Source: Heptranchias perlo
Lineage: Eukaryota
Assembly: GCF_035084215.1 (NCBI RefSeq)
Contig: NC_090364.1
Span: 8,680,001-8,744,000, forward strand
Direction: 5' to 3'
DNA: 64,000 bases
In this document: positions 3,173-58,278 of the stretch, piece after piece
Position numbering within the stretch: position 1 is the stretch's first letter
Layout: each line of letters starts with the position of its first letter
The notes under the pieces: model-generated
The model's input: only the letters and a program-made list of their open reading frames with translations
Told to the model about the DNA's origin: nothing
Database searches by the model: none
Program-made: the position numbers and the translations under genes

Positions 3173-4871
3173 GGGCGCTAAATTGGGTGGTGAGGCGCCT
3201 GTTGTTTCAGGGCTACACGGCCTCTCCAACATCCAAGATGGCGTCTTAGCTGCGCATGCACGTTTCCAGCGTGACCTGCGCCGGACGCCATCTTGGTATA
3301 GGAGTTAGCACTTGCGCAAATACCGAATGCCAGGAGCATGTAAAGTAGGGAGAAAATGGATGCAATCAGTGTGCAACGCTGATTTAAAGTGATCGACACC
3401 ATTTTGGGATTTAACGCTCAATTCAACGCACAGTCTTAACCCCGACCATCTGAACGTATCTTAGAGTGCCTGGAGGACAACCACCAGCGCTATTTAAAGG
3501 GACCATGCAGGATTTACAGGTTAGTGGCTGGATTTTTGCTTCTGGCTGCCAAGGCATTTGTAACTGTTTTTGGAGGTCTCCTAGACTTGAATACTAGGAT
3601 GCAGGGACATAGCCTAACATTTAGAGCCAGGACGCGCAGGAGTGAAGTTTGGAAATGCTTCTACACGCAAAGGGTGGGAGATGTTTGGAACACCCTTCTG
3701 CAAACGGCAGTTGATGCTAGCTCAATTGTGAATGTTAAATCTGAGATTGATAGATTTCTGTGAACCAAGGGTATTAAGGGCTATGGGGCTAAGGCGGGTA
3801 TATGGAGTTAGGTCACAGGTCCACCATGATCTCATTGAATGGCGGAACAGGCTCAAGGGGCTAAATGCCACTGCCACTTGCTGCCTCCTGATATGCGCCA
3901 CCTTCTCCTGCAAGAAAGCGGGATGTGTGTCTGGGTGATGTGCCTGTCATTGTTGAATAGCTGTCAGTGTGTGCGGCCTGTGAGTTGTGAGTGGGCAGCT
4001 TGAAAACAGTGGTAACGTGCAAGGGTGAGAGGAAGCATCTGATTGGAAGAGTTGAGTACTGATGGAAAGAGTTTGTTGGTATGTGGGTGATGGGGTGTAG
4101 TGTGTGGAGCAGTGGATGTGGCTAGTGGTGCAGTTGGTAGGAGACAACACTTGACAGTTGACCTCACTCACCTTGACCACTCATGTCAAAGCATTGAACT
4201 TCTTCCTGCACTGCATCCATGCTCATGATGCTGTGCGCCTGGCATTGACTTCGTCCCCCGCTGCCTCCCACGGCCTTTTGGATATATGTCTGGAGGGCCT
4301 CTTGCCCTCCCCCCGGATATAGGATGTCCCTCCTTCTGTCCACTTCTTGCACCAAGGCCTCTAGTGCATCAGTAGAGAACCTTGGTGCACGGACTCTCGC
4401 AGGCCTGGTACAAACGCAGATCGGCAGATTGGTGAGGTCTGACATGCAGATCGGAGGATGTGGGATTTAGTAGTGCGCAACCTTTATTCGATGTTTTAAC
4501 ATAACGCATCAGTTTGTAAACATAGAGACGGGAGCTGCATCTGTGTTTTGCGTGTGCAATGTCTGATCTCTGTTCAGACTCGGTGCAGACAGCAGATTGT
4601 TATTTTCAGCAAATAATAGGTACCAGCTACCTTTAAGAGATTTTTAAGAGACAGCCTGCCTTTAAGAGATTGGGGCTCCCTGTGCTTGTGAAAAGTGCAA
4701 ATTGCATTGAATCCTCGTGTCAATGCTGATTCGGAACGCTGCTTGAAGGTAAGTCCTCAGGCCTCACGTAAGTCTCGTTCTGCCTGCGCAGGGGCCATTA
4801 GGCGCGTGGTAATAGCGGATCGCACTGCCCCCGCCCAATAATAGGCCCTATCCAATTTCCCCCTCCCCCCC
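3173..4871 (-). mobile_element. PIF/Harbinger-derived element with Myb/SANT-like ORF remnant; nested CR1 fragment at about 3585-3865
   Basis: Minus ORF 4164-4445 RVRAPRFSTDALEALVQEVDRRRDILY resembles Harbinger Myb/SANT proteins; imperfect GGG..AAATTGG / CCAATTTCCCC termini; flanks rejoin as AATTCA|AGTCTT, as in the intact promoters. Confidence 0.7.
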
Positions 4872-4937
4872 CAAGTCTTTTAACAACAACGTTTCAAGAT
4901 ATTGGCTTTGCTGAAACTAAATTAGACCAAAAAACAA

Positions 4938-5033
4938 ATGAATTCCTAGGTATGCCAGAACTACCACCAGGATTGTGAGACTGCTATCAACAAGCAGATT
5001 AAGATGGAGCTCTCTGCCTCCTATCTTTCTGTG
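4938..5033 (+). pseudogene. Ferritin pseudogene: exon 1 plus part of intron 1; exons 2-4 not found
   Basis: ATG AAT TCC TAG ... reads [31 protein letters not shown]; stop at codon 4, 6-nt deletion, GT donor; 5034-5400 resembles intron 1 of the intact genes. Confidence 0.9.
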
Positions 5034-5816
5034 GTGATTTTAAAAAAAAATCTGGTATTAAGTGTTTAAATTCTTGTCTCTTAGTTAGGGCTAATTTTAA
5101 CTGTGGCCTCTTCCATCTCTTGATCTAGTTGCAGCACTAACAATAGACAGCATTCACTTTAATCCGTTAGAACTGACGTTGGCAGCGACTTCCTTGCATT
5201 TAGGGGAAGCAGAGGTAAGGCTTAAATGTCAAATTGGTCATTTCGTTGCTGCTGGGAATTTGTAATGCGCAAGCTTTTTGACCTCGCTCCAACAGAATAC
5301 AGTTCAGACTCTCTACTGAGTGGAGTTAAACTCGAAGGCCCTGAGCTATCGTCAGTCTCAAATTGAACGGCACAATTGATCTCCTTGGTGAGCTGTAGCT
5401 AATCCGGATTGTAATAAAAGGTCAGAATCTTCTGTGAAGACTGAATGTCTATTGCTGTTTATTCCCCTATCGCATTGGCACAAACTTACCCGGTTGCTGT
5501 CCCACAAGAGATGAATGGGCAACATTACACAAATGTCTTCATTTCTTAACTCTTTCCATCGTCTTCTCTCCATTGTACTTACGTGTCAATCTGACAGTTG
5601 ATATTATCAACTGCTACACGGCATTTTTTATTGGGCAAAGGGATCGCACTTTCACCCACACCTTCTCAGTTATAGTTAACTGCTGGTCTAGTCTCTATTC
5701 CATACGTCCACTTTTTTATTTCCCGTGCAATCTGTTACTGGACAGTAAATGCACCTCATTTTACTGAGAAACCAATCGAATATGCGAATAAGTCTGAAAA
5801 GAAAGCCTCACCAATT

Positions 5817-6888: not shown

Positions 6889-7095
6889 AGCCATGATGTG
6901 GAGATGCCGGTGGTGGACTGGGGTGGACAAATGTAAGGAATCTTACAACACCAGGTTATAGTCCAACTGTTTTATTTGAAAATCACAAGCTTTCGGAGGC
7001 TTCCTCCACTCACCTGACGAAGGAGGAAGCCTCCGAAAGCTTGTGATTTTCAAATAAAACTGTTGGACCATAACCTGGTGTGGTAAGATTCCTTG
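6889..7095. mobile_element. Penelope-like element end with inverted duplication (hairpin)
   Basis: Inverted arms of about 72 bp (6935-7007 and 7022-7093); 12-bp TSD AATTTTTATACT (6877-6888, 7096-7107); same family as 18586-19345. Confidence 0.75.
7010..7046 (+). ncRNA. Minimal type I hammerhead ribozyme-like motif (Penelope-associated)
   Basis: UCAC-CUGACGA-A-GGAGG(AAG)CCUCC-GAAA-GC-UU-GUGA: catalytic core, stem II, stem I UCAC/GUGA, palindromic AAGCUU stem III. Confidence 0.6.
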
Positions 7096-7694
7096 AATTT
7101 TTATACTGATGTTTTCAGAAATGTGTATTTTCTATCTCTAGCCATGCAGCAATCATGGAAAGAATTGTAAGACAGATTATTAAATATCTCTGACATTTGT
7201 TTGGATGAGACAATGGCTATTTTCCAACTGTCTGTATATTGAATAATTGTGAACTACTTCTGAGGCTAATGAAAATTGTTTCTAACCACACTTGGCTGAA
7301 TCCCATTTGTAATCGAGATCCAGGGACATGCTGGGGCATTTATAAAAGGTAATAAATGAAAAAACACCATGGAACTGGCCAGATTTGTACAAAATAATTT
7401 CAGGCTGATATTGTCCTATAGGGTGAGATGATGTATCTTCAGTGTTTATGGCATGTGACAGGTGGGTGAGTCAACCCACAAGGGACAAATGGTGGCATCA
7501 TACATTTCTTAGCTCTTCCCTTCATCTTCTCTCCTTTCTATCTCACTAATGTAGATGAACCGTGTTTACCAAGTTGTTATGGCTGTTTTGGTCCAACAAA
7601 GAGGCCACATTTTCACCTCGCCCTTTCCCAGTTATAATTAACTGCTGGTCTGGACCTTGTATTCCTTTCATCCACCATTTTCCTTTCTCAATCT

Positions 7695-9160: not shown

Positions 9161-11712
9161 TAAGAACTTAAGAACATAAGAAATAGGAGCAGGAGTAGGC
9201 CATACGGCCCCTCGAGCCTGCTCCACCATTCAATCAGATCATGGCTGATCTTCGGCCTCAACTCCACTTTCCCGCCTGATCTCCATATCCCTTGATTCCT
9301 CTAGAGTCCAGAAATCTATCTATCTCAGCCTTGAATATACTCAACGACGCAGCATCCATGGCCTTCTGGGATAGAGAATGCCAAAGATTCACAACCCTCT
9401 GAGTGAAGAAATTCCTCCTCACCTCAGTCTTGAAAGGCTGACCCTTTATCCTGTGACTATGCCCTCTAGTTCTAATCTCTCCAGCCAGGGGAAACAATCT
9501 CTCAACATCTACCCTGTCAAACCCCCTCATAATCATATATGTTTCAATGAGATCACTTTTCATTCTTCTAAACTCCAGAGTATAGGCCCATTCTACTCAA
9601 CCTCTCCTCATAGGACAACCCTCTCATCCCAGGAATTAATCTGGTGAACCTTTGTTGCACCGCCTCTAAGGCAAATATATCCTTCCTTAGACCAAAACTG
9701 TATGCAGTACACCAGGTGAGGTCTCACCAAAGCCCTGTACAACTGTAGTAAGACTTCCTTACTCTTGTACTCCAACCCCCTTGCAATAAATACCAACATG
9801 CCATTTGCTTTCTTAATTGCTTGCTGTACCTGCATGCTAACTTTTTGTGTTTCTTGTATGAGGACACCCAAGTCTCTCTGAACACCAACATTTAATAGTT
9901 TATCACCATTTAAAAAATATTCTGTTTTTCTATTCTTCCTACCAAAGTGAATAACTTCACATTTCCCCACATTATACTCCATCTGCCACCTTCTTGCCCA
10001 CTCACTTAACCTGTCGATATCCCTTTACAAACTCTTTGTGTCTTCCTCACAGCTTACTTTGCCACCTAGCTTTGTATTGTCAGAAAACTTGGATACACGA
10101 CACTTGGTCCCTTCAACCAAGTCATTAATATAGATTGTAAATAGCTGAGGCCCAAGCACCGATCCTTGCAGCACTCCACTAGTTACAGTTTGCCAACCTG
10201 AGAATGACCCGTTTATCCCTACTCTCTGTTTTTCTGTCCTTTAGCCAGTCCTCTACCCATGCTAATATATTACCCACAACCCCATGGTTCCTTACCTTGT
10301 GTAATAACCTTTTATGTGGCACCTTATCGAGTGCCTTTTGAAAATCCAAATATACTACATCCACTGGTTCCCCTTTATCTACCCTGCTAGTTACATCCTC
10401 AAAAAACTCTAATAAATATGACATACATGATTTCCCTTTCATAAAACCATGTTGACTCTGCCTAATCATATGATTTTCTAAGTGCCCTGTTACCACTTCC
10501 TTAATAATGGATTCCAGCATTTTCCCGATGACCGATGTCAGGCTAACTGGCCTGTAGTTCCCTGTTTTCTCTCTCCCTCCCTTCTTGAATAGCAGGGTTA
10601 CATTTGCTACCTTCCAATCCAACCTTTCCAGAATCTAGGGAATTTTGGAAGATTATAACCAATGCATCCACTATCTCTGCAGCCACCTCTTTTAGAACCC
10701 TAGGATGTAGGACATCAGGTCCAGGGGATTTGTTGGCTTTTAGTCCCATTAGCTTGTCCAGTATTTTTTCTCTAGTGATGTTAATTGTTTTAAGTTCCTC
10801 ACTCTCATTTACCCCTTGGTTTCCCACTATTTCTGGTATGCTTTTTGTGTCTTCTACTGTGAAGATAGATATAAAATATTTGTTTAAAGCATCTGCCATT
10901 TCCTGATTCCCCGTTATAATTTCTACTGTCTCAGCCTCTGAGGGACTAATGTTTACTTTTGCTACTCTCTTCCTTTTTACATACTTGTAGAAGCTCTTAC
11001 AATCCGTTTTTATATTTCTTGCTAGTTTACTTTCATATTCTATTTTCTCCCGTTTTATCAATTTTTTGCTCGTCCTTTGCTGGTTTCTAAAAGTCTCCCA
11101 ATCCCCAGGCTTATTACACTTCTTGGCAACCTTACAGGCCTCTTCTTTCAATCTAATACTCTCTTTAACTTCTTTAGTTAGCCACTGTTGGATCACTTTT
11201 CCTGTGGAGTTTTTATTTCTCAATGGAATGTATATTTGTTGAGAATATTGAAATATTTCTTTAAATGTTTGCCATTGCTTTTCAACTGACAAACCCTTTA
11301 ATTTAATTTCCCAATCTACCTTTCATAACTTGCCCCTCAAACCTATGTAATTGGCTTTATTTAAGTTTAAGATTCTAGTTTTTGACTTAAATACGTTACT
11401 TTCAAACTCAATGTGAAATTCTATCATATTATGATCACTCTTCCCCAGAGGTTCTTTTACTGTGAGATTACTAATTAACCCTATCTCATTACATAATACA
11501 AGATCTAAAATAGCCTGTTCCCTGGTTGGTTCCATGACGTATTACTTTAAGAAATCGTCTCGAATACATTCCATGAACTCATGTTCCAAACTACCTTGGC
11601 CAATTTAATTTGCCCAGTCTATATGCAGATTAAAGTCCCCCATAATGACTGTATTTCCTTTGTTACGAGCTCCTATTATTTCATGATTAATACTTTGTCC
11701 TCATGATTAATA
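9161..11712 (-). mobile_element. 5'-truncated CR1 LINE, about 2.5 kb, frameshifted ORF2 (endonuclease end, RT, C-terminus)
   Basis: Minus ORFs 11323-11535 (PTREQAILDLVL), 10543-11292, 10179-10622 (GNYRPVSLTS, QHGF, YLDFQKA), 9608-9982, 9258-9563. Confidence 0.95.
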
Positions 11713-13400: not shown

Positions 13401-13552
13401 CTGATTGGCTCTGGATGCCATCCCCATCCCATCCTGTGCTGATTGGAATCCTTGGACATGGCAGCTGTTTGATTGGTTGACAAGAGTGGCCAGTCATCAT
13501 TGATGATGTCATTTCCTGGATTTCATGCTAGGTTGCGCTCCAGGGGTATAAA
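13401..13552 (+). promoter_or_regulatory. Core promoter of ferritin gene A: three inverted CCAAT boxes, CRE-like TGATGTCA, TATA box
   Basis: ATTGG at 13404, 13442, 13472; TATAAA 13547-13552; layout conserved with the gene B promoter. Confidence 0.8.
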
Positions 13553-13631
13553 TTCAGGTCTTCTGGCACTATAGTTCCAAATTAATAGTGGTACTGAAAC
13601 TAACTTAGAGTGTTTGTAGAATTTTTGAAAA

Positions 13632-18067
<4,436 letters not shown>

Positions 18068-21840: not shown

Positions 21841-22040
21841 TCTGATTGGCTTTGGGTACCATACCCAAAGATTTCTCCTTATTGGTTAGTTAGAAAAGGC
21901 ATACCCAAAGCTTATCCTGTGTTGATTGGAGTCCTGAAACATGGCAACTGCTTGATTGGTTAACAAGAGTGGTTAATCAACATAGATGATGTCATTTCCT
22001 GGATTTTAAACAGGTGGGTGTATCCCTCCCACAGTATAAA
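21841..22040 (+). promoter_or_regulatory. Core promoter of ferritin gene B: four inverted CCAAT boxes, CRE-like site, TATA box
   Basis: ATTGG at 21845, 21881, 21925, 21955; TATAAA 22035-22040. Confidence 0.8.
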
Positions 22041-22080
22041 TTCAAGTCTTCTCAGGGTAAAGTCTTAGACATTTAGTATT

Positions 22081-22111
22081 GTTGCTGTTTAAATAGTGTT
22101 TGAACTGATTC
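22081..22111 (+). promoter_or_regulatory. Degenerate iron-responsive element (IRE) in the 5' UTR of ferritin B
   Basis: TG-T-TTAAA-TAGTGT-TTGAA-C versus canonical TG-C-TTCAA-CAGTGT-TTGAA-C; bulge C and loop C1 both changed to T. Confidence 0.65.
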
Positions 22112-22136
22112 TCCTGTCCAAAAGCTCACGTAAAGG

Positions 22137-23892
<1,756 letters not shown>

Positions 23893-24049: not shown

Positions 24050-24055
24050 AATAAA
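24050..24055 (+). terminator. Candidate polyadenylation signal of ferritin B
   Basis: AATAAA about 160 nt after the stop, followed by a GT/T-rich tract. Confidence 0.65.
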
Positions 24056-25476: not shown

Positions 25477-26682
25477 TGCCATATGGTGAGCGAGAAGGAG
25501 AATCCCTGCATAAATTCCAGGCGCATAGCTCTACTGAGCTCAGTAATTTCTTCCAGGCTACGTGTAGTGTTACTGATTATATCTCTACAGATGATGCAGC
25601 TTCCTCTCTCTCATGCATCTGAGCCAGCACACCTGTGTTAACTGATTGTATCTCTAAGGCTAAACAAGCTCCCTCTCAATGTTGGGCTCAGTGACTCCTC
25701 CCAGTTAGTTCTGGTAATGATACCATTCATGGTCAAAGGAAATAAATTAATAAAATTTAACAATGAGCGAAAGGATGTTAAAGTAGTTCTGATTTTTAAA
25801 GAGTGACTTGATGGTGAGTCACCCTCTTTAATGGAATGGTCGATGGGTGCATTTGTTCAGATATCACCATTCTCCCAGAGCAGCAAAAGGTTGATCTGGA
25901 CACAAATGGTACTTTAAATTAAATAAATATATCAGTCTGATGCTTGATTCTGCTATAACTCCAAAATGGCTGAATTTTGAATTGTGGCCTTATTTCCACA
26001 TTATGTGGAAGTATTGGCCATTAAGGTACTGAAAGTCCACTGTGAAGAGGAGGAGGAGCATTCTTGCAATCCACTTGCATATTGTTGCTGCAGTTTCTAT
26101 GGGGCAGCTGCACCACTGGGACAATGGTCAAGGAAATGGCGTCTGGATTACTGTTCATCAGTGTTTGGTATGGGAGTTTTTAATCCTGATCTTTCTTCTG
26201 GTGCTGGGGTACAGAATACAGGGACACCCACTTTCCAGGTGGTCGCACTTTGTATCTGACTGCCCATTTCACCTCAAACATTGGCCACCTCAATCCTTCT
26301 CCTCTTCTCCCCTCTCCCAACTTGGTTAATGCTTGACCTGGAGTTCAATGGTCAGCATTGCTTTGTTCCACCCATCTCCAAGTCTAACCAGTTGGCAAGA
26401 AAAGGCTTATTGATAAAATTCAACGCACAACACTCTCATTTGGTAGTTAAATTACCCATAAACTAATTTCCCTACATAGCTGGTCGGGTTGTGTGCACAG
26501 TGTGCAGGTATTCAGTTAGCAGAGATCCAGAGGTGAATGGCTGAGAGGAAGGGAGTTTAGAAGCTCACGGACACAAACAAGGGATTAAGCTAAGGACGTT
26601 TACTTTACAGACGAGAGGTCGTCTTCGCGCTTTTATTCCAATACTTTACTGAAAAAAAGTTATATGTGTGGACTGTTAAATG

Positions 26683-29700: not shown

Positions 29701-32700
29701 ATGTCCTGCTGTGTTTTTATTCCCGTTACACTGGTGAGCCCATTTTAAACTTTAACAATTTGTATATCCTTTTTTTAAAGTTTCAGTATTTCGTCCCTCA
29801 TTAGTTTTCCTGCCTCCCTTCCGTCTCTGGACTCCCGTTTCCTTCACCAACTCACAGGCTTCCAGGTTCCCTTCCAACCCGCCCACCCACCCAAATCCAA
29901 CCTCATTGAATGTTCTGCTGAGCATATCGGGTCTTCCGCACTGAAATTGAAGTTCCGCCCCTCCAGTTTTGCCCCTGATGTCAACCCCTGCTGATATTTC
30001 TCCTCAGGGACCTCCTGTTGATCATTTTGTGCCGTTTCTGTCCCCCACTGGAGATATCCACTTCCTCGCCCCAATGTCATCCGTGCTGATTCTTCTGCTC
30101 AGCCCTCTTTCTCCGTTTGCTCACGGGACTCCCTTTCTGCTGCGGCAGCTTCTCCTGCCCCCACCTGGCCTAGAGCAAACTTTTTCTGCTCCCGGCAGCT
30201 AATCACTGATTGTGTTTTTGGGAACATGGATATCCTCCCCCTTCACTCTTTCAGCATTGCAGTCCTCGTATTTTGGTTAAGTAGCTGCCACTTTAAGCCT
30301 GTAGGAATTGCTGGATGAAGATAGACCGAGGTCCATCTAGTCCATCCTGGTGGTCGCAGAATGTCAATGGAGAACCTCCCAGTCATGTGTGGAGGACGCT
30401 TAAAATGGCTGGTCTCCATTCAAAATACAAATATCTCCTATTGGCCACCAGTTCTACCTAGTTTTGTATTGAAAGTGTTCCCAATATAGAAAGAGAAAGA
30501 ATTGCATTTATATAGCACTTTTCACAACCTCAACCAAAGCATTTTACAGCCAATAAAGCACTTTACAAGTATAGTCGCTGTTGTCATGTAGAAAACACTG
30601 CAGCCAATTTGCACAAAGCAAGCTCCCACAAACAGCAACACAATGATCAGATAGTCTGTTTTAGAGATGTTGGTTGAGGGGTAAATTTTGGGCCAAAGAC
30701 ACTGGAAAAAAAAACCCCTGCTCTTCTCCGAATAATGCCATTGGATCTTTTACATCCACCTGAGAGAGCAGATGGGGCCTTGGCGTAACATCACGTCCAA
30801 AAGACGGCACCTCTGACAGTGCAGCTCTCCCTCAGTACTGCACCCGGATGTCAGCCTAGATCTTGTGCTCAAGTCTCTGGAGTGGGACTTGACTCCGCAA
30901 CCTTCTGACTCAGGAGGGCAAGAATGCTACCCACTGAGCCAAGGCTGACACCTACTTTAAAATCCACATCTGTCTAGTAAATGAAAATTAGCCTAGAGAG
31001 GCTCCCACCTACTAGTTACACAGTTTCTGTTTGGACTGAAGTCTTTTTTTGCCTTCCTTTACAGTTTTGATAACTATTCTACCACTGTGACGGTTGATGG
31101 TCACGTAGTGAACCTAGGATTGTGGGACACAGCAGGACAGGAAGACTATGACAGGCTCCGACCACTCTCCTACCCGCAGACTGTAAGAATATTAACACAG
31201 CAATTCTCTCTTTGTCTCTCTACTTTCTTCCTTTTACCAAGTTACCTCCTAAGAAAGCACAATAGTTTGACGTGGAGTTCAGCGGAATGAAACAATACTA
31301 TTGTAGGACTACTCGGTTGTTCATTTTACTTTCCTCTTTTCCAGGATGTATTTGTGATCTGTTTTTCCCTGGTCAGCCCTGCTTCTTTTCAAAATGTCCG
31401 TGTCAAGGTGAGTCAGGGGACATTTGGACTTTTAGCACAGGAAGTGGCCATTTAGCTGATTGTATCTGTGTGGGTCACATCGGAGAGATCTACTCCAATC
31501 TGGCTTCTCTGCTATTTTTCCATAAATTTTAATATCGTTCCTTTTCAACTGTTTTTCCAATTCAATGCCTTGACCTCAATCAGCTACTTGTGGTAGTGCA
31601 TTCCATAATCTAATAAAACTGTCTTCTTCCTTTGTGCTTCTGAGTTTATGTCACCTTGTTCCAGATTCACTGTCCAATCATAGAAATTTACAGCACAGAA
31701 GGAGGCCATTTGGCCCATCGTGTCTGTGCCGACTGAAAAGAAGCCATCCAGCTTAATCCCTCTTTCCAGCTCTCGGTCCGTAGTCTTGTAGGTTACAGCA
31801 TCTCAAGTGCACATCCAAGTACTCTTTAAATGCGAAGGGGCCTTGGCGTAACATCACGTCCAAAAGACGGCACCTCCGACAGTGCAGCACTCCCTCAGTA
31901 CTGCATCCGAAATGCGAGGAGTGTTTCTGCCTCTATCACTCTTTCAGGCAGTGAGTTCCAGACCCCCACCACCCTCTGGGTGAAAAGATTTCTCCTCAAC
32001 TCCCCTCTAATCCTTCTACTTCAAATCTATGCCCCCCTGGTTATTGACCTCTCTACTAAGGGAAATAGGCCCTTCCCAACCACTCTATTTAGGCCCCTCA
32101 TAATTTTATACACCAGTAGAAATAATCATCCTTTATTCTCTGAACCCTTTAATAATTTTGAGACGTCCCATTCAACTCCCCCCCTAACCTTCTCTGCTCT
32201 GATGAGTCCAACCTTAGTTTTTCCAAATTTCTCATTGCAACTATATCCTCTCAAGCCTGGTTATCACCCCAGTCCTAGACATTTATTGATTAATGATTTT
32301 TGTGCTCATCAAGGTATTTATAGTCCCCCGCTGTTTAAAGCAGGCGTGTTGGTGTTAACGCGATTTGCCCGCTTTACGTGGTGGACGCTAAAACCAAAAA
32401 GGTAGATTACCAACATATTTTTAAAAACAGGATATCTCACTTAGCGACTGCCTCTCCTAATTGTTAGCAGTTGCATCCAGAATCTCATCACTAAGGTAAT
32501 TGCACTTTAACGAGGTGTGAACAGCTGATTGAACTTGCTCGGAAACCCAACTCCGCCTGAAGTTAGCAGAGCCTTTTAAATTGGTCAGTGGGGGGTAAGT
32601 ACATGGGGAACTGCCTGAAATAGTCGGCATTCTTAATGCGTTATAAGCAGTGCCTTTGTAATTGACTCTTATGGTAATGGGAAATGGTTCGGGCCATTTG

Positions 32701-35700: not shown

Positions 35701-38550
35701 GTCTCTCCACATAACTGAAGTTACTCTAAACCATTTTCTCAGGCGCTACAATTTTGTGCAGTATAATATTGGCCTTATTCTCAAACAGCTGCCCTTTGGC
35801 ATCCATTACAATGCAGTTCAATAGTACATCACTCAGTGGAAAAATTGGCCGTCAAATTGTTAGAAAACTGACCAGGCAGCGCTCCACAGTCTGGGAAAGT
35901 CATGGATTAACGTAGGAAATTATGTAATGATTCTTGATTTCAATAACAATGAGAATACAGGGAGGAGGGGGAACATGTAGAACGGCACATTTGGACTCTA
36001 GTGGGAACAAGAGAAGAAAACTTAGATGGTCAAAGACTTTAATAGTGCAGATAAAGTAGAGAAAGACAAAGGTTCTGATGGGGGAGATGGGGGCAAGAGG
36101 TGAGAGGAGGTGCACCGATCAGATGACGAGTCTTTTTTAAGTATTCCTACCAGGAATGTGGGTGAGATGTCCAAGATTCTCCAGATATGATGCAAATAAT
36201 GGGCTAGATTTTCCATCCATTGATTATGAATGGATGGCAATGACATCACATGAATGGAGAACATAAGAACATAAGAAATAGGAGCGGGAGTAGGCCATGC
36301 GGCCCCTCGAGCCTTCTCCGTCATTCAATAAGATGTTGGCTGATCTTCAACCTCAACTCCATTTTCCTGCCTTATCCCCATATCCCTTGATTCCCTTAGA
36401 GTGCAAAAATCTATCGATCTCCGCTTTGAATATACTCAACGACTGAGCATCCACAGCCCTCTGGGGTTGGGAATTCCAAATATTCACGACCCTCTGAGTG
36501 AAGAAATTTCTCCTCATCTCAGTCCTAAATGGCCGACCCCTTATCCTGACACTATGTCCCCTAGTTCTAGACTCTCAAGCTGGGGGAAACAATATGGCTT
36601 CCATAGCTTTGATATACAAGCACAATAGTAAACAAAAGTAAACCTTAAATGGAACCATGTTGGCCAAATTTTCTGCGCCAATAAGTCAGCACTTGACCAT
36701 TTTTTTTGCTTCTCCTTACACAGTGGCACCCTGAGGTGAAACGACACTGCCCCAACTCTCCCATCATCCTTGTGGGCACCAAGCTGGACTTGCGAGATGA
36801 CAAAGAAACCATAGAGAAACTGAAGGAGAAGAACCTGGCGCCCATCAGCCACGAACAAGGCGCACAGATAGCGAAGGAGATTGGTATGTGACATTTCTAC
36901 AAGAGGAGCAAAAAGCTTTTTTTGCACATTGGTTTGACCATTGACAGTCTCATGAGTGGCGACATATATTGGATCATAGTGTTAATAAGGGCATGGGGTA
37001 AGGTGTGTGCCCATCCTCTGAACAAAAAGAAATCAATCAAGTTCAAGATGCAATGGAATATTTATAGTCACTTGACGACCAAATGTTCACATCTCCTCTA
37101 GGGCTCGATATCCGTTCATGTTTTTATGAGACACAATCAAATTAGCCCTGGAGCAAGATCTCCATATACTATCTGATCTGCAAGTCAAAATCGCTGGCCT
37201 GTATCCCGAAAACTATCTCCCCCGCCAAAACCCGTTCTCCATTTTGTGGGCAGAAGGGGAAGACAGCTAGGCCCAGAAATTCAGCAGACTTTTTTTATTT
37301 GTTCATGGGATGTGGGCGTCGCTTGCAAGGCCTGCATTTATTGCCCATCCCTAATTGTCCTTGAGAAGATGCTGGTGAGCCGCCTTCTTGAACCGCTGCA
37401 GTCCCTGTGGTGAAGGTTCTCCCACAGTGCTGTTAGGTAGGGAGTTCCAGGATTTTGACCCAGCGACGATGAAGGAACGGCCGATATATTTCCAAGTCGG
37501 GATGGTGTGTGACTTGGAGGGGAACGTGCAGGTGGTGTTATTCCCATGTGCCTGCTGCCCCTGTCCTTCTAGGTGGTAGAAGTCGCGGATTTGGGAGGTG
37601 CTGTGGAAGAAGCCCTGGCAAGTCGCTGCAGTGCATCCAGTGGATAGTACACACTGCAGCCACGGTGCGCCGGTGGTGAAGAGAGTGAATGTTTAGGGTG
37701 GTGGATGGGATGCCAATCAAGCGGGCTGCTTTGTCCTGGATGGTGTCGAGCTTCTTGAGTGTTGTTACTGGCTCTAAATGGCCCGCAAGGCCTCCAACAT
37801 GGCGGGCAGGGAGCACATGCTCATTATGAGCTGGAAGTGCGTCACCCGCCATATTGGTAAAGGCCAAAAGATCGGTGTGCAGTGCTCACACCTGAAACAG
37901 ACGTTAGGTCCTTTGCAAATGTAAATGAAGGGCATAACGCCTGTTTGAAGAACGCCAGCCACTACCCACCCACCGATCACTGCCGCTATTTCCCAACCCG
38001 GTTGCCCTCAATTCCTCACTTACCCGAGGGCCGCTGCTTGGGCAGCTCGCCGCCATGACGTCAATGAGGCCCTATATCGTCGGGGGTGCCTTGATTATTC
38101 CCTGTGCTTACCCCCACCCTGCCACCTCCCCCCGCACCCCCTCCCTGCCCCCACGCAGCCAAAAATGGGCACACCCAAATTTCCAGGCCCTTCTACCTTA
38201 ACAATAGTTCATTCAGAAACATTACGTAATAGGGCCAATTTCACAAAAGTCTACTCCCCGGGGATGAGTCTCACTCACCGGCCATCCACATCAGGAAATC
38301 GCAGGCATGCTGCCCACGATCCGTTAAAGTCGATAAAGGAAGTTTTGGAGGGGGAGGTACTGAGCAAAATACAATAGGAGGACAAGAGCTGAAAGTGTCT
38401 GTCTTATTTTTAATTTCTACAGGAGCGGTGAAGTTTATTGAAAGTTCGGCGTTCAAACAGAAGGGCCTAAAGATGATATTCGAGGAGGCCATTCGGGCTG
38501 TGATCTTCCAACCAGTACAGAAGAGAAAGTTACAGTGCCGTGTTCTGTAG
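26683..38550 (+). CDS. Divergent Rac-subfamily Rho GTPase (191 aa; 192 if the in-frame ATG at 26680 is used), join(26683..26717,27427..27498,31065..31182,31345..31407,36724..36883,38423..38550)
   Basis: [191 protein letters not shown]; exon sizes 35/72/118/63/160/128 follow the RAC1-type structure. Confidence 0.95.
26945..27240 (+). mobile_element. L2-type 3' fragment (Rac intron 1)
   Basis: [12 protein letters not shown] motif and tail. Confidence 0.75.
27427..27498 (+). CDS. Rac-like gene 1 exon 2
   Basis: [24 protein letters not shown]; AG/GT borders. Confidence 0.95.
27957..28317. mobile_element. hAT-type MITE
   Basis: TIRs TAGGGTTGCCA / TGGCAACCCAA; perfect 8-bp TSD GTCAGCTT (27949-27956, 28318-28325). 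Confidence 0.85.
29400..29520 (+). mobile_element. LINE 3' end fragment (family of 62990-63840)
   Basis: CACCACACGGACTGCA..GGGCAATTAGGGATGGGCAATAAATGC. Confidence 0.8.
30490..30952 (-). mobile_element. Deu-domain SINE, full length
   Basis: Reverse complement similar to 5817-6265, including the tRNA-like head. Confidence 0.8.
31065..31182 (+). CDS. Rac-like gene 1 exon 3
   Basis: [26 protein letters not shown]. Confidence 0.95.
31345..31407 (+). CDS. Rac-like gene 1 exon 4
   Basis: [21 protein letters not shown]. Confidence 0.95.
31678..32270 (-). mobile_element. CR1 3' fragment(s) with a 74-bp SINE-derived insert
   Basis: CATAGAA tail, antisense ORF2 C-terminus. Confidence 0.75.
32786..32952. 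mobile_element. Palindromic MITE
   Basis: GGGATAAATTGTCAACTTG / CAAGTTGAAAATTTACCCC termini; central TTTCCGTTGAAATCAATGGAAA palindrome. Confidence 0.7.
33620..33991 (+). mobile_element. L2-type 3' fragment
   Basis: [12 protein letters not shown].. and tail. Confidence 0.75.
35153..35720 (-). mobile_element. CR1 3' fragment interrupted by a Penelope-derived insert (35410-35549)
   Basis: Minus ORF 35510-35710 [25 protein letters not shown]; insert flanked by 15-bp TSD TTAAATCTGTGTCCT. Confidence 0.85.
35413..35451 (+). ncRNA. Minimal type I hammerhead ribozyme-like motif
   Basis: GAGUU-CUGACGA-A-AGGUC(UUC)GACCU-GAAA-CG-UU-AACUC; 5-bp stem I, 5-bp stem II, palindromic AACGUU. Confidence 0.65.
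36258..36592 (-). mobile_element. CR1 3' fragment
   Basis: AGAACATAAGAACATAAGAAATAGGAGC tail, same family as 9161-11712. Confidence 0.85.
36724..36883 (+). CDS. Rac-like gene 1 exon 5
   Basis: [27 protein letters not shown] (G4 motif and Rho insert). Confidence 0.95.
37290..37765 (-). mobile_element. LINE 3' fragment (family of 62990-63840)
   Basis: [26 protein letters not shown] in minus ORF 37538-37867. Confidence 0.85.
38423..38550 (+). CDS. Rac-like gene 1 exon 6 (coding)
   Basis: [12 protein letters not shown]...[13 protein letters not shown] box. Confidence 0.93.
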
Positions 38551-55264: not shown

Positions 55265-56507
55265 TGACAAATTTCTTAGAGTTTTTTGAGGATATAACTA
55301 GCAGGGTAGATAAAGGGGAACCAGTGGATGTAGTATATTTGGATTTTCAAAAGGCATTCGATAAGGTGCCACATAAAAGGTTGTTACACAAGATAAGAGC
55401 TCATGGGGTTGGGGGTAATATATTAGCATGGATAGAGAATTGGTTAAAGGACAGAAAACAGAGAGTAGGGATAAACAGGTCATTCTCAGGTTGGCAGGCT
55501 GCAACTAGTGGGGTACTGCAAGGAACGGTTTTTGGGCCTCAGCTATTTACAATCTATATTAATGACTTGGATGAAGGGACCGAGTGTAATGTATCCAAGT
55601 TTTCTGACGATACAAGGCTAGGTGGGAAAGTAAGCTGTGAGTCTGCAAAGGGATATAGACAGATTAAGTGAGTGGGCAAGAAGGTGGCAGATGGAGTATA
55701 ATGTGGGGAAATGTGAGATTAGTCACTTTGGTACGAAGAATAGAAAAACAGAATATTTTTTAAATGATGAGAAACTATTAAATGTTTGTGTTCCGAGAGG
55801 TTTGGGTGTCCTCGAACAAGAAACACAAAAAGTTAGTATGCAGATACAGCAAGCAATTAGGAAAGCAAATAGCATTTATTGCAAGGGGGTTGGAGTACAA
55901 GAGTAAGGAAGTCTTACTACAATTGTACAGGACTTTGGTGAGACCTCACCTGGAGTACTGCATACAGTTTTGGTCTCCTTATCTAAGGAAGGATATACTT
56001 GCCTTAGAGGCGGTGCAACAAAGGTTCACTAGATTAATTCCTGGGATGAGAGGGTTGTCCTATGAGGAGAGGTTGAGTAGAATGGGCCTAAACTCTCTGA
56101 AGTTTGCAAGAATGAGAGGTGATTTCATTGAAACATATAAGATTATGAGGGGGTTTGACAGGGTAGATGCTAAGAGGTTGTTTCCCCTGGCTAGAGAGTC
56201 TAGAACTAGGGGGTATTGTCTCAGGATAAGGGATCGGCCATTTAGGACTGAGATGCGGAGGAATTTCTTCACTCAGAGAGTTGTGAATCTTTGGAATTCT
56301 CTACCCCCAGAGGCCTATGGATGCTGAGTCGTTGATTATATTCAAGGCTAAGATCGATAGATTTTTGGACTTGAGGAGAATCAAGGGATATGGGGATCGG
56401 GCGGGAAAGTGGAGTTGAGGTCGAAGATCAGCCATGATCTGATTGAATGGCGGAGCAGGCTCATGGGGCCGTATGGCCTACTCCTGCTCCTATTTCTTAT
56501 GTTCTTA
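55265..56507 (+). mobile_element. CR1 LINE, 5'-truncated, inserted in a GATA-rich tract
   Basis: ORFs 55264-55671, 55637-55906, 55782-56327; close relative of 9161-11712. Confidence 0.95.
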
Positions 56508-57004
56508 TATGGATAGAGAGATAGGTGGATAGATCCAGATTGATAGACAGGCAGAAAGATAGATAAGTCATTGAAAGTAAACCTAAAAATATTACTTTAC
56601 ATTAAATTGCAGGAGTAGAACAAGAGGTCACAGGTTAAAACTAGTAAAAGGTAATCTCAGAATTGATATCAGGAAATTCGTCTGCACACAAAGAGTGATC
56701 AATGTATGGAATAGACTTTCAGGGAGAGTAGTGGAGGTGAAAACCCTGGAATCATTCAAGAAACAATTGGATGCTGCAATGGGGAGAGGTTAGGATCTCT
56801 CTGGATGGATGAACTAAGATGGACCGAATGGACTTCTTTATCTTTAATTATCCTGTGATATAGGAACAGGAGGAGTCCATTCAGCCCCTCGAGACTGTTC
56901 AGCCATTCAATTAGATCATGGCTGATCTGTATCTTAACTTCCATTTACCCGCTTTGGCTCTACATAGATAGATAGATTTGGTTGTAAAAACAGAAAGACA
57001 GATC

Positions 57005-57765
57005 ATTATCTGAATGGTGATAGATTGGGAAAAGGGGAGGTGCAACGAGACCTGGGTGCCCTCGTACACCAGTCGCTGAAAGCGAGCATTCAGGTGCAGC
57101 AAGCAGTTGGGAAGGCGAATGGTATGTTGGCCTTCATTGCAAGAGGATTTGAGTACAGGAGCAGGGATGTCTTACTGCAGTTGTACAGGGCCTTGGTGAG
57201 ACCACATCTGGAGTATTGTGTGCAATTTTGGTCTCCTTATCTGAGGATGTCCTTGCCATGGAGGGAATGCAACGAAGGTTTACCAGACTGATTACTGGGA
57301 TGGCAGGACTGACGTATGAGGAGAGATTGGGTCGACTTGGCCTATATTCACTCGAGTTTAGAAGAATGAGAGGTGATCTCATCGAAACATATAAAATTCT
57401 AACAGGACTAGACAGACTAGATGCAGGGAGGATGTTCCCGATGGTTGGGGAGTCCAGAACCAGGGTTCACAGTCTCAGGATATGGGGTATGCCATTTACA
57501 ACCGAGATGAGGAGAAATTTCTTCACTCAGAGGGTGGTGAACCTGTGGAATTCTCTACCACAGAAGGCAGTGGAGGCCAAGTCATTAGATGCATTCAAGA
57601 AGGAGATAGATATATTTCTTAATGCTGAAGGGATCAAGGGATAGGGGGGAAAAAGCAGGAACAGGGTACTGAGTTAGACGATCAGCCGTGATCATTTTGA
57701 ATGGCAGAGCAGGCCCGAAGGGCCGAATGGCCTACTCTTGCTCCTATTTTCTATATTTCTACAGA
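57005..57765 (+). mobile_element. CR1 3' fragment
   Basis: ORFs 57025-57291 and 57216-57644. Confidence 0.9.
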
Positions 57766-58243: not shown

Positions 58244-58278
58244 ATGCAAGCCATCAAATGTGTGGTGGTGGGGGATGG
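58244..58278 (+). CDS. Rac gene 2, first coding exon (rest of gene not seen in the window)
   Basis: ATG CAA GCC ATC AAA TGT GTG GTG GTG GGG GAT GG|GTGAGT = [12 protein letters not shown], identical to the RAC1/2/3 N-terminus; 35-nt exon. Confidence 0.9.

Follow-up and report, generated by a model that had tools for sequence, protein, structure and literature searches.

A putative fossil iron-responsive element in the leader of a shark ferritin gene predicted to encode a ferroxidase-deficient subunit

Does a ferritin gene of the shark Heptranchias perlo still carry, within the leader, a functioning iron-responsive element (IRE) or only the remains of one, and what would this mean for the protein it encodes? 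The question is raised by a stretch of 64 kb (the window, to which all positions refer) that contains two intact, tandem ferritin genes of four exons each on the + strand, gene A (13632–18067) and gene B (22137–23892) (Table 1). Their products of 176 residues each are identical to Heptranchias perlo RefSeq models (P0002, XP_067830304.1, for gene B and P0133 for gene A), and the gene B protein matches the Ferritin domain PF00210 with 122.5 bits. The two differ at 13 residues, and the dN/dS of 0.18 between them (dN 0.033, dS 0.18) points to purifying selection on both genes. For a transcript check small shares of the contigs of four coded runs, presumed to be RNA, were used. Contigs that may also come from paralogues bridge the GT-AG junction between exons 1 and 2 in all four of these runs and the junction between exons 2 and 3 in three of them, and one contig equals gene B over 22973–23065 (93 nt of exon 2), covering four sites that are diagnostic for A or B.

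The exons of A and B, together with about 40–60 flanking intron bases, are 91–94% identical while the intron bodies barely align, a pattern that suggests gene conversion between old duplicates. In the proximal promoters 110 of 133 aligned bases are identical. Three inverted CCAAT boxes lie upstream of gene A, so that the two promoters (21845–21994 in B, 13404–13520 in A) show three or four such boxes about 30–44 nt apart, and both share the block GATGATGTCATTTCC. The first inverted box stands in what we take to be a Y-box-like context, and the conserved CCAAT-box promoter could be the basis of germline expression. A broken orphan ferritin exon 1 further upstream (window 4850–5041) has a 6-nt deletion besides its stop codon, and its upstream flank is related to the flank of gene A (0/2000 shuffles) but not to that of gene B. 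Next to the ferritin array there are tandem Rac-like small GTPase genes on the + strand, with a start exon near 26680, Ras-family matches at 31066–31170 and 36703–36885 and a second start exon near 58247. The segments 1–282, 6929–7100, 9169–10900 and 55265–57757 contain a long palindrome, a tandem repeat of short length and remnants of LINE reverse transcriptase, some as inverted pairs.

Table 1: Positions of the ferritin features in the window.
Feature	Position	Strand	Details
Orphan ferritin exon 1, broken	4938–5041	+	stop at codon 4
Gene A, tandem paralogue	13547–18067	+	TATA 13547; exons 13632–13733, 16854–17000, 17388–17513, 17912–18067; A61/K62/C65
Gene B promoter	21845–21959	+	four inverted CCAAT (ATTGG) boxes at 21845, 21881, 21925, 21955
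Gene B TATA box	22035–22040	+	TATAAA
Putative fossil ferritin IRE	22078–22113	+	full 36-nt Rfam IRE_I register, lower stem broken; R1 aligns positions 1–36
IRE core relic	22086–22105	+	17/20 identical; U n8 (22088), A n11 (22091), U n14 (22094); AGU 22095–22097 intact
Gene B coding exon 1	22137–22238	+	ATG at 22137; contigs span the junction with exon 2
Gene B exon 2	22923–23069	+	E61 (22992), K62 (22995–22997), R65 (23004–23006), human H numbering
Gene B exon 3	23418–23543	+	
Gene B exon 4	23737–23892	+	includes stop codon
Gene B polyadenylation signal, putative	24050–24055	+	AATAAA

The sequence TGTTTAAATAGTGTTTGAAC lies at 22086–22105, between the TATAAA (22035) and the ATG of gene B. The original prediction had described an element after this TATA box as a fossil ferritin IRE that deviates at the bulged C, the loop C and one base of the upper stem. 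The sequence is indeed present there, with its core behind the TATA box at 22035–22040, and the three mismatches are exactly n8, n14 and n11: compared with the cores of real ferritin IREs and with the Rfam IRE_I consensus, the relic has U for C at n8, A for C at n11 and U for C at n14. A scan of the 64 kb with up to three mismatches gave this single match, and none of 100 dinucleotide shuffles gave any. When every position of either strand is scored against the core, the 17 of 20 bases again rank first, followed by 15/20 at three positions. When the 96-nt stretch from TATA to ATG was shuffled, none of 20,000 shuffles reached 17, the maximum being 16, and the analytic chance of a relic-like match is about 8e-6 per UTR. 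An accidental resemblance of an AT-rich UTR to an IRE, which might be suspected as structure-aware models miss the relic in the whole window and as the reference core was picked with the finding in mind, is extremely unlikely in view of these numbers, of the right gene, strand and position and of a reference that equals the Rfam consensus. From its sequence, the gene B element thus appears to be a true but decayed homologue of the ferritin IRE, and on identity, uniqueness in the window and the UTR shuffles the description as a fossil was borne out.

The reference IREs were compiled by searching public contigs for an IRE motif, which led to 17 loci. That their cores are identical to the motif follows from the way of searching, but they are identical to the Rfam IRE_I consensus as well, and 11 of the 17 score 46–57 bits with Rfam IRE_I (gathering threshold 34). 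As these contigs are deposited as microbial or metagenomic, we assigned the labels fish, mouse, H, M and L from frames and tree, and the ferritin frames cluster alongside chains of the H, fish M and rodent L types. No ferritin gene accompanies the motif in L004, L006, L009 and L014, nor was one seen in L017, L016 and L017 gave no Rfam IRE match, and the IRE pattern had no match in viral contigs. Our own covariance model R1, built from seven intact IREs, gives 44–53 bits for seven of nine loci tested, six of these seven being in the training set, and 21–23 bits for the other two, both motif matches lacking a ferritin gene. L001, L002, L003 and L005 are vertebrate ferritin mRNAs with intact IREs inside bacterial assemblies and therefore contamination, as are P0043 and P0198, vertebrate-type ferritins that go under the names of Aeromonas or Salmonella.

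To what extent could the relic still work? At gathering and E-value thresholds Rfam IRE_I has no match in the whole window, in 1–26000 or in 22050–22140, a check that the original prediction had suggested. In the register 22078–22113 the relic scores 6.6 bits with R1 compared to 44–53 for intact IREs, and it is absent among the six R1 matches in the whole window at E up to 10. A functional IRE has five defining features, namely the C14-G18 pair, the AGU triplet, at position 19 a U or C that is unpaired, the bulged C8 and the upper helix (PMC8466369), and three of the five fail in the relic. The cross-loop pair is U14-G18, the bulged C8 is a U, and the upper helix of five base pairs contains an A.G mismatch at n11-n22, with four of the five upper-stem oppositions kept. 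The triplet A15 G16 U17 is present, as is U19, even though the predicted fold gives this base a partner, and the G7-C25 pair is also kept. The list of defects in the original prediction was correct for the three core positions but overlooked the lower stem, in which three of five pairs are broken (C.U, G.G and U.U). The predicted probability of upper-stem pairs in the IRE register is 0.00 in the relic compared to 0.93–1.00 in five of five intact IREs, and U8 violates the core rule of SIREs (PMC2896125), the other program that had been suggested as a check. A hairpin slipped by one base (22087–22105) would pair both U8 and A11 and show an AGU triloop without bulge. This hairpin is weak (-3.9 kcal/mol), is not favoured for three of four guessed transcript starts once cap-proximal bases are included, and is probably due to chance.

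Changes at the same positions are known from human disease. In the hyperferritinaemia-cataract syndrome (HHCS) the FTL IRE alleles include +29C>G (Torino), +33C>U (Madrid/Philadelphia), +36C>A (London-2) and +39C>U (London-1) (PMC3585816). In the ungapped register these are the very letters of the relic, with the difference that the relic, in a reference-type gene, combines all four. It can be regarded as a compound mutant, made by nature, that carries four alleles of human disease. Since the catalogue lists two or three of the three possible changes at +33, +36 and +39 (PMC3585816), the exact agreement in letters is no great coincidence, and the feature of note in the sequence would be which positions have changed, namely the conserved cytosines of the 5' arm. 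With equal mutation rates at all sites, the probability that three of three core changes fall on the four Cs is 0.0035. In fact C mutates more readily than this calculation supposes, which leaves room for drift as the cause of the 5'-arm C losses.

An attenuated but working IRE that binds shark IRPs weakly and confers some iron response would fit the intact AGU triplet and U19. Single changes at these sites still allow measurable IRP binding in vitro (PMC3585816, PMC8466369): this has been found for U14-G18 and C8 variants (PMC8466369), and +29C>G alone costs about 30–40% of binding (PMC3585816). In the relic, however, four such changes are combined with G51U, a slipped hairpin or cap-proximal pairing is predicted to be preferred over the IRE register, the SIREs core rule is broken by U8 and no such element can be detected in gene A, which makes residual regulation very unlikely. 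With C8, the C14-G18 pair and the lower stem lost and no in-register fold predicted, translation without iron-dependent repression is most likely. The proposed escape from IRP control is therefore a likely prediction, as three of five features fail, the lower stem is gone and the core changes are of the disease type, and judged from the sequence the gene B mRNA has likely lost this control.

All of this presupposes that the relic is transcribed. As the core follows the TATA box at 51 nt, and the intact IRE of L007, a fish gene of the M type, at 63 nt, we infer that it is located inside the gene B mRNA. The TATA box lies 102 nt before the ATG and the leader contains no upstream ATG. In the three runs of the first organism practically no contig covers the gene B 5' UTR, which with contigs of this kind does not count as a finding. 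If transcription started further downstream or if another first exon were used, the relic would be real but outside the main mRNA and would say little about translational control. Two acceptor-like CAG sites a short way upstream of the relic, ending at 22034 and 22055, could be read in this way, and in a second organism a contig joins a B-like promoter to exon 1 via an unlike stretch of 85 nt, showing that other 5' UTRs exist among paralogues. Against this stand the spacing of TATA box, core and ATG, the missing upstream ATG and a layout that is that of the fish M gene, and we regard a relic outside the mRNA as quite unlikely. An upstream exon supplying an intact IRE, which would have contradicted the original prediction, was not found: neither the 22 kb upstream nor the rest of the window contains an intact IRE, so that the gene B mRNA would be IRE-free whichever first exon is used.

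Another contig of the second organism covers 22023–22105, including TATA box and relic, over 83 nt without gaps and with 73 of 83 bases identical. Six of its ten differences fall at 22056–22075 and four are unplaced, and because of the latter this contig cannot separate an intact IRE from the same relic; an intact IRE would require all four unplaced differences to lie at the three C positions and 22084. A relic spotted by eye in gene A had to be rejected (13/20; 1.3 bits), as neither core identity nor the R1 model detects one in its leader, and the similarity of the A and B UTRs is equalled by 473 of 2000 shuffles. Among N-terminal extensions of gene models, which may be spliced artefacts, IRE-like translations occur in five mammalian H models and are absent from three extensions of the shark clade described below.

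For the protein we use human H numbering, which we take to be offset by +3 in the shark residues. Compared with solved H chains, gene B keeps E27, Y34, E61, E107, E140 and Q141 and has ligands replaced by K62 and R65, while gene A has A61, K62 and C65, replacing three members of the ligand list E27, E61, E62, H65, E107 and Q141 (PMC4117605). As a ferroxidase-null mutant the double change E62K/H65G is standard (PMC4029007), and for FTHL17 it is stated that E62K by itself suffices to abolish the activity (PMC7760355). On this comparison the gene B subunit would be without ferroxidase activity. In order to place both genes we reconstructed a tree of 95 proteins from the fetched set, from which fused or partial models and near-duplicates had been excluded. 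A and B are found among 27 shark proteins that form one clade with support 100/99 and come from Heptranchias, Heterodontus, lamniforms, carcharhiniforms and orectolobiforms. Every one of the 27 sampled members has K62, 22 keep H65, and the 3-fold iron channel (D131, E134, H118) is conserved in 27/27, including gene B. Position 57 is H, A or D in every member (H57 in B) and never E, and among positions 57/60/61/64 there are only two glutamates in B and one in A. The sister of this K62 clade is a second expanded chondrichthyan clade (n = 31) with E62 in 28/31, and both are placed in the M/L lineage. Mammalian L is placed apart in the best trees, but a common origin with the K62 clade is not rejected (p-AU 0.276, 46 rows).

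Some further observations concern the two expanded clades. P0037, P0045 and P0051 are Heptranchias paralogues from the E62 clade that have separately changed to K or N at position 62, apparently a repeated loss of the ferroxidase ligand. Residue 19 of P0002 (22 in H numbering) is K or Q/N in 58/58 proteins of both clades, and each of the 27 canonical chains in our table (H, M-like and L) has R there; R22 is presumably the NCOA4 ferritinophagy contact. The shark models P0001, P0007–P0010 and P0121–P0132, with 260–410 residues and repeated exon 2–3 content, are probably fusions within the tandem array.

Was the loss of the IRE tied to that of the ferroxidase site? We used a crude clock in which the relation between dS and protein distance for A and B serves to scale tree lengths. 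For neutral decay from the root of the K62 clade onwards, the probability that at least 17 of 20 bases are left is 0.73; it is 0.046 for decay from the base of its stem and 0.017 from the base of both expansions. This favours an IRE loss no older than the K62 lineage, while joint and later loss would not be separable by the clock, the distances of which are too short if the barely aligning introns next to such similar exons reflect gene conversion as they seem to. Of the original proposal that IRE and ferroxidase site disappeared together, the replacement of E62 and H65 is confirmed, and the joint timing is compatible with this rough dating.

That the role of the protein is uncoupled from iron storage, as was further proposed, cannot be deduced from this, as mammalian L combines K62 and an IRE with iron storage. 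K62 is found in 8/8 and E57 in 7/8 mammalian L chains, the rodent L chain L005 has K62 together with a 57-bit Rfam IRE, and L subunits store iron in heteropolymers (PMC7692541). It is nevertheless conceivable that the shark protein left iron storage for another role, as has been proposed for FTHL17, and that its IRE decayed for that reason. This reading concerns the function of the protein and is compatible with a fossil IRE. E62K together with H65R, the few glutamates at 57/60/61/64 and the residues at position 57 would agree with it, as would the precedents of FTHL17 (E62K, germ cells; PMC7760355) and of atypical invertebrate ferritins without IRE (PMC8395497). The storage function of mammalian L, the conserved iron channel and the parallel expansion of ferroxidase-intact paralogues with E62 argue against it, and we see it as a real possibility but not as the favoured one. 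The loss of E62 without the acidic patch of L chains leans towards a passive or non-iron role, whereas the conserved iron channel and the co-expanded active paralogues, which make mixed cages possible, lean towards mixed cages made in bulk, for which an iron-independent translation would be useful.

Taken together we consider it quite probable that gene B carries a fossil IRE and that its mRNA is most likely translated without iron-dependent repression, probably resulting in an iron-independent output. The computed basis for this is the homology of the element, its position between TATA box and ATG, the failure of IRE features, purifying selection and E62K/H65R. In the corresponding model the IRE would have been inherited from the M/L-type ferritin gene that founded the shark family by duplication. 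The bulged C8 and the C14-G18 pair needed by IRP1/IRP2 would then have been lost, the upper helix would have acquired a mismatch and the lower stem would have disappeared, leaving an mRNA free of iron-dependent repression. Gene B would be one of many ovary-biased shark ferritin copies with an output set by transcription, and its product a catalytically dead cage subunit, either alone or mixed with ferroxidase-intact paralogues.

A broader scenario is speculative and in our opinion rather doubtful: sharks, independently of mammals, might have evolved a ferroxidase-dead, IRE-free K62 subunit class that is kept in squalomorphs and galeomorphs, has been multiplied in tandem and mixes with active paralogues in oocytes, forming a second H/L cage or an FTHL17-like germline cage, with gene B caught mid-way in the regulatory step, selection having removed all four cytosines of the 5' arm, the loss of which de-represses L-ferritin in humans. 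If true, changes that cause disease in humans would be adaptive in a shark for bulk, iron-independent synthesis. In any case the K62 subclade, all sampled members of which are without this ferroxidase ligand and two or more genes of which are without a predicted working IRE, offers a testable handle on the large and unexplained expansion of shark ferritins. The mechanism itself is not new, as ferritin paralogues lacking both IRE and ferroxidase site are known in mammals and invertebrates. A literature search, which covered sources other than subscription journals, found no paper on shark ferritin IREs or the K62 subclade, and this occurrence in sharks, the K62 clade that spans them and a readable fossil with four disease-type changes appear to be undescribed.

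Compared to the ferritin IRE (Rfam RF00037, IRE_I) of FTH1, FTL and fish H and M genes, the relic shares 17 of 20 core bases, the AGU triplet, the G7-C25 pair and the position between TATA box and ATG, but it differs in the lost C8, C14-G18 pair and lower stem, the A.G in the upper stem and the lack of a predicted in-register fold. The closest parallel of gene B may be the germ-cell FTHL17, with which it has E62K as the sole sequence feature in common; FTHL17 is not known to carry an IRE. Mammalian FTHL17 is ferroxidase-null due to E62K, expressed in germ cells and multi-copy in mouse (PMC7760355); it is X-linked and FTH1-like, in contrast to the intron-containing shark clade of the M/L lineage. 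A further trait of this germline type of ferritin is that part of it is located in the nucleus. With FTL the shark clade shares this lineage in a broad sense and K62 next to a conserved E107, but FTL keeps its IRE, has E57 and replaces E27, H65 and Q141, which the shark clade mostly keeps while being without E57. For the Greenland shark ancient clusters with 155 FTL-like and 179 FTH1-like copies have been reported that are syntenic in white shark, the largest cluster being ovary-specific (bioRxiv 10.1101/2024.09.09.611499). Here too we find many near-identical shark paralogues, but the ferritin passage of that report is silent on IREs, on ferroxidase residues and on any K62 subclade, and the ovary expression refers to the Greenland shark cluster and not to gene B or this subclade. 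In atypical invertebrate ferritins the loss of iron-binding residues also accompanies the absence of the IRE (PMC8395497). These proteins, however, are far more divergent and, as described there, have no recognisable IRE remnant, whereas gene B is about 70–75% identical to H chains and its relic can still be read.
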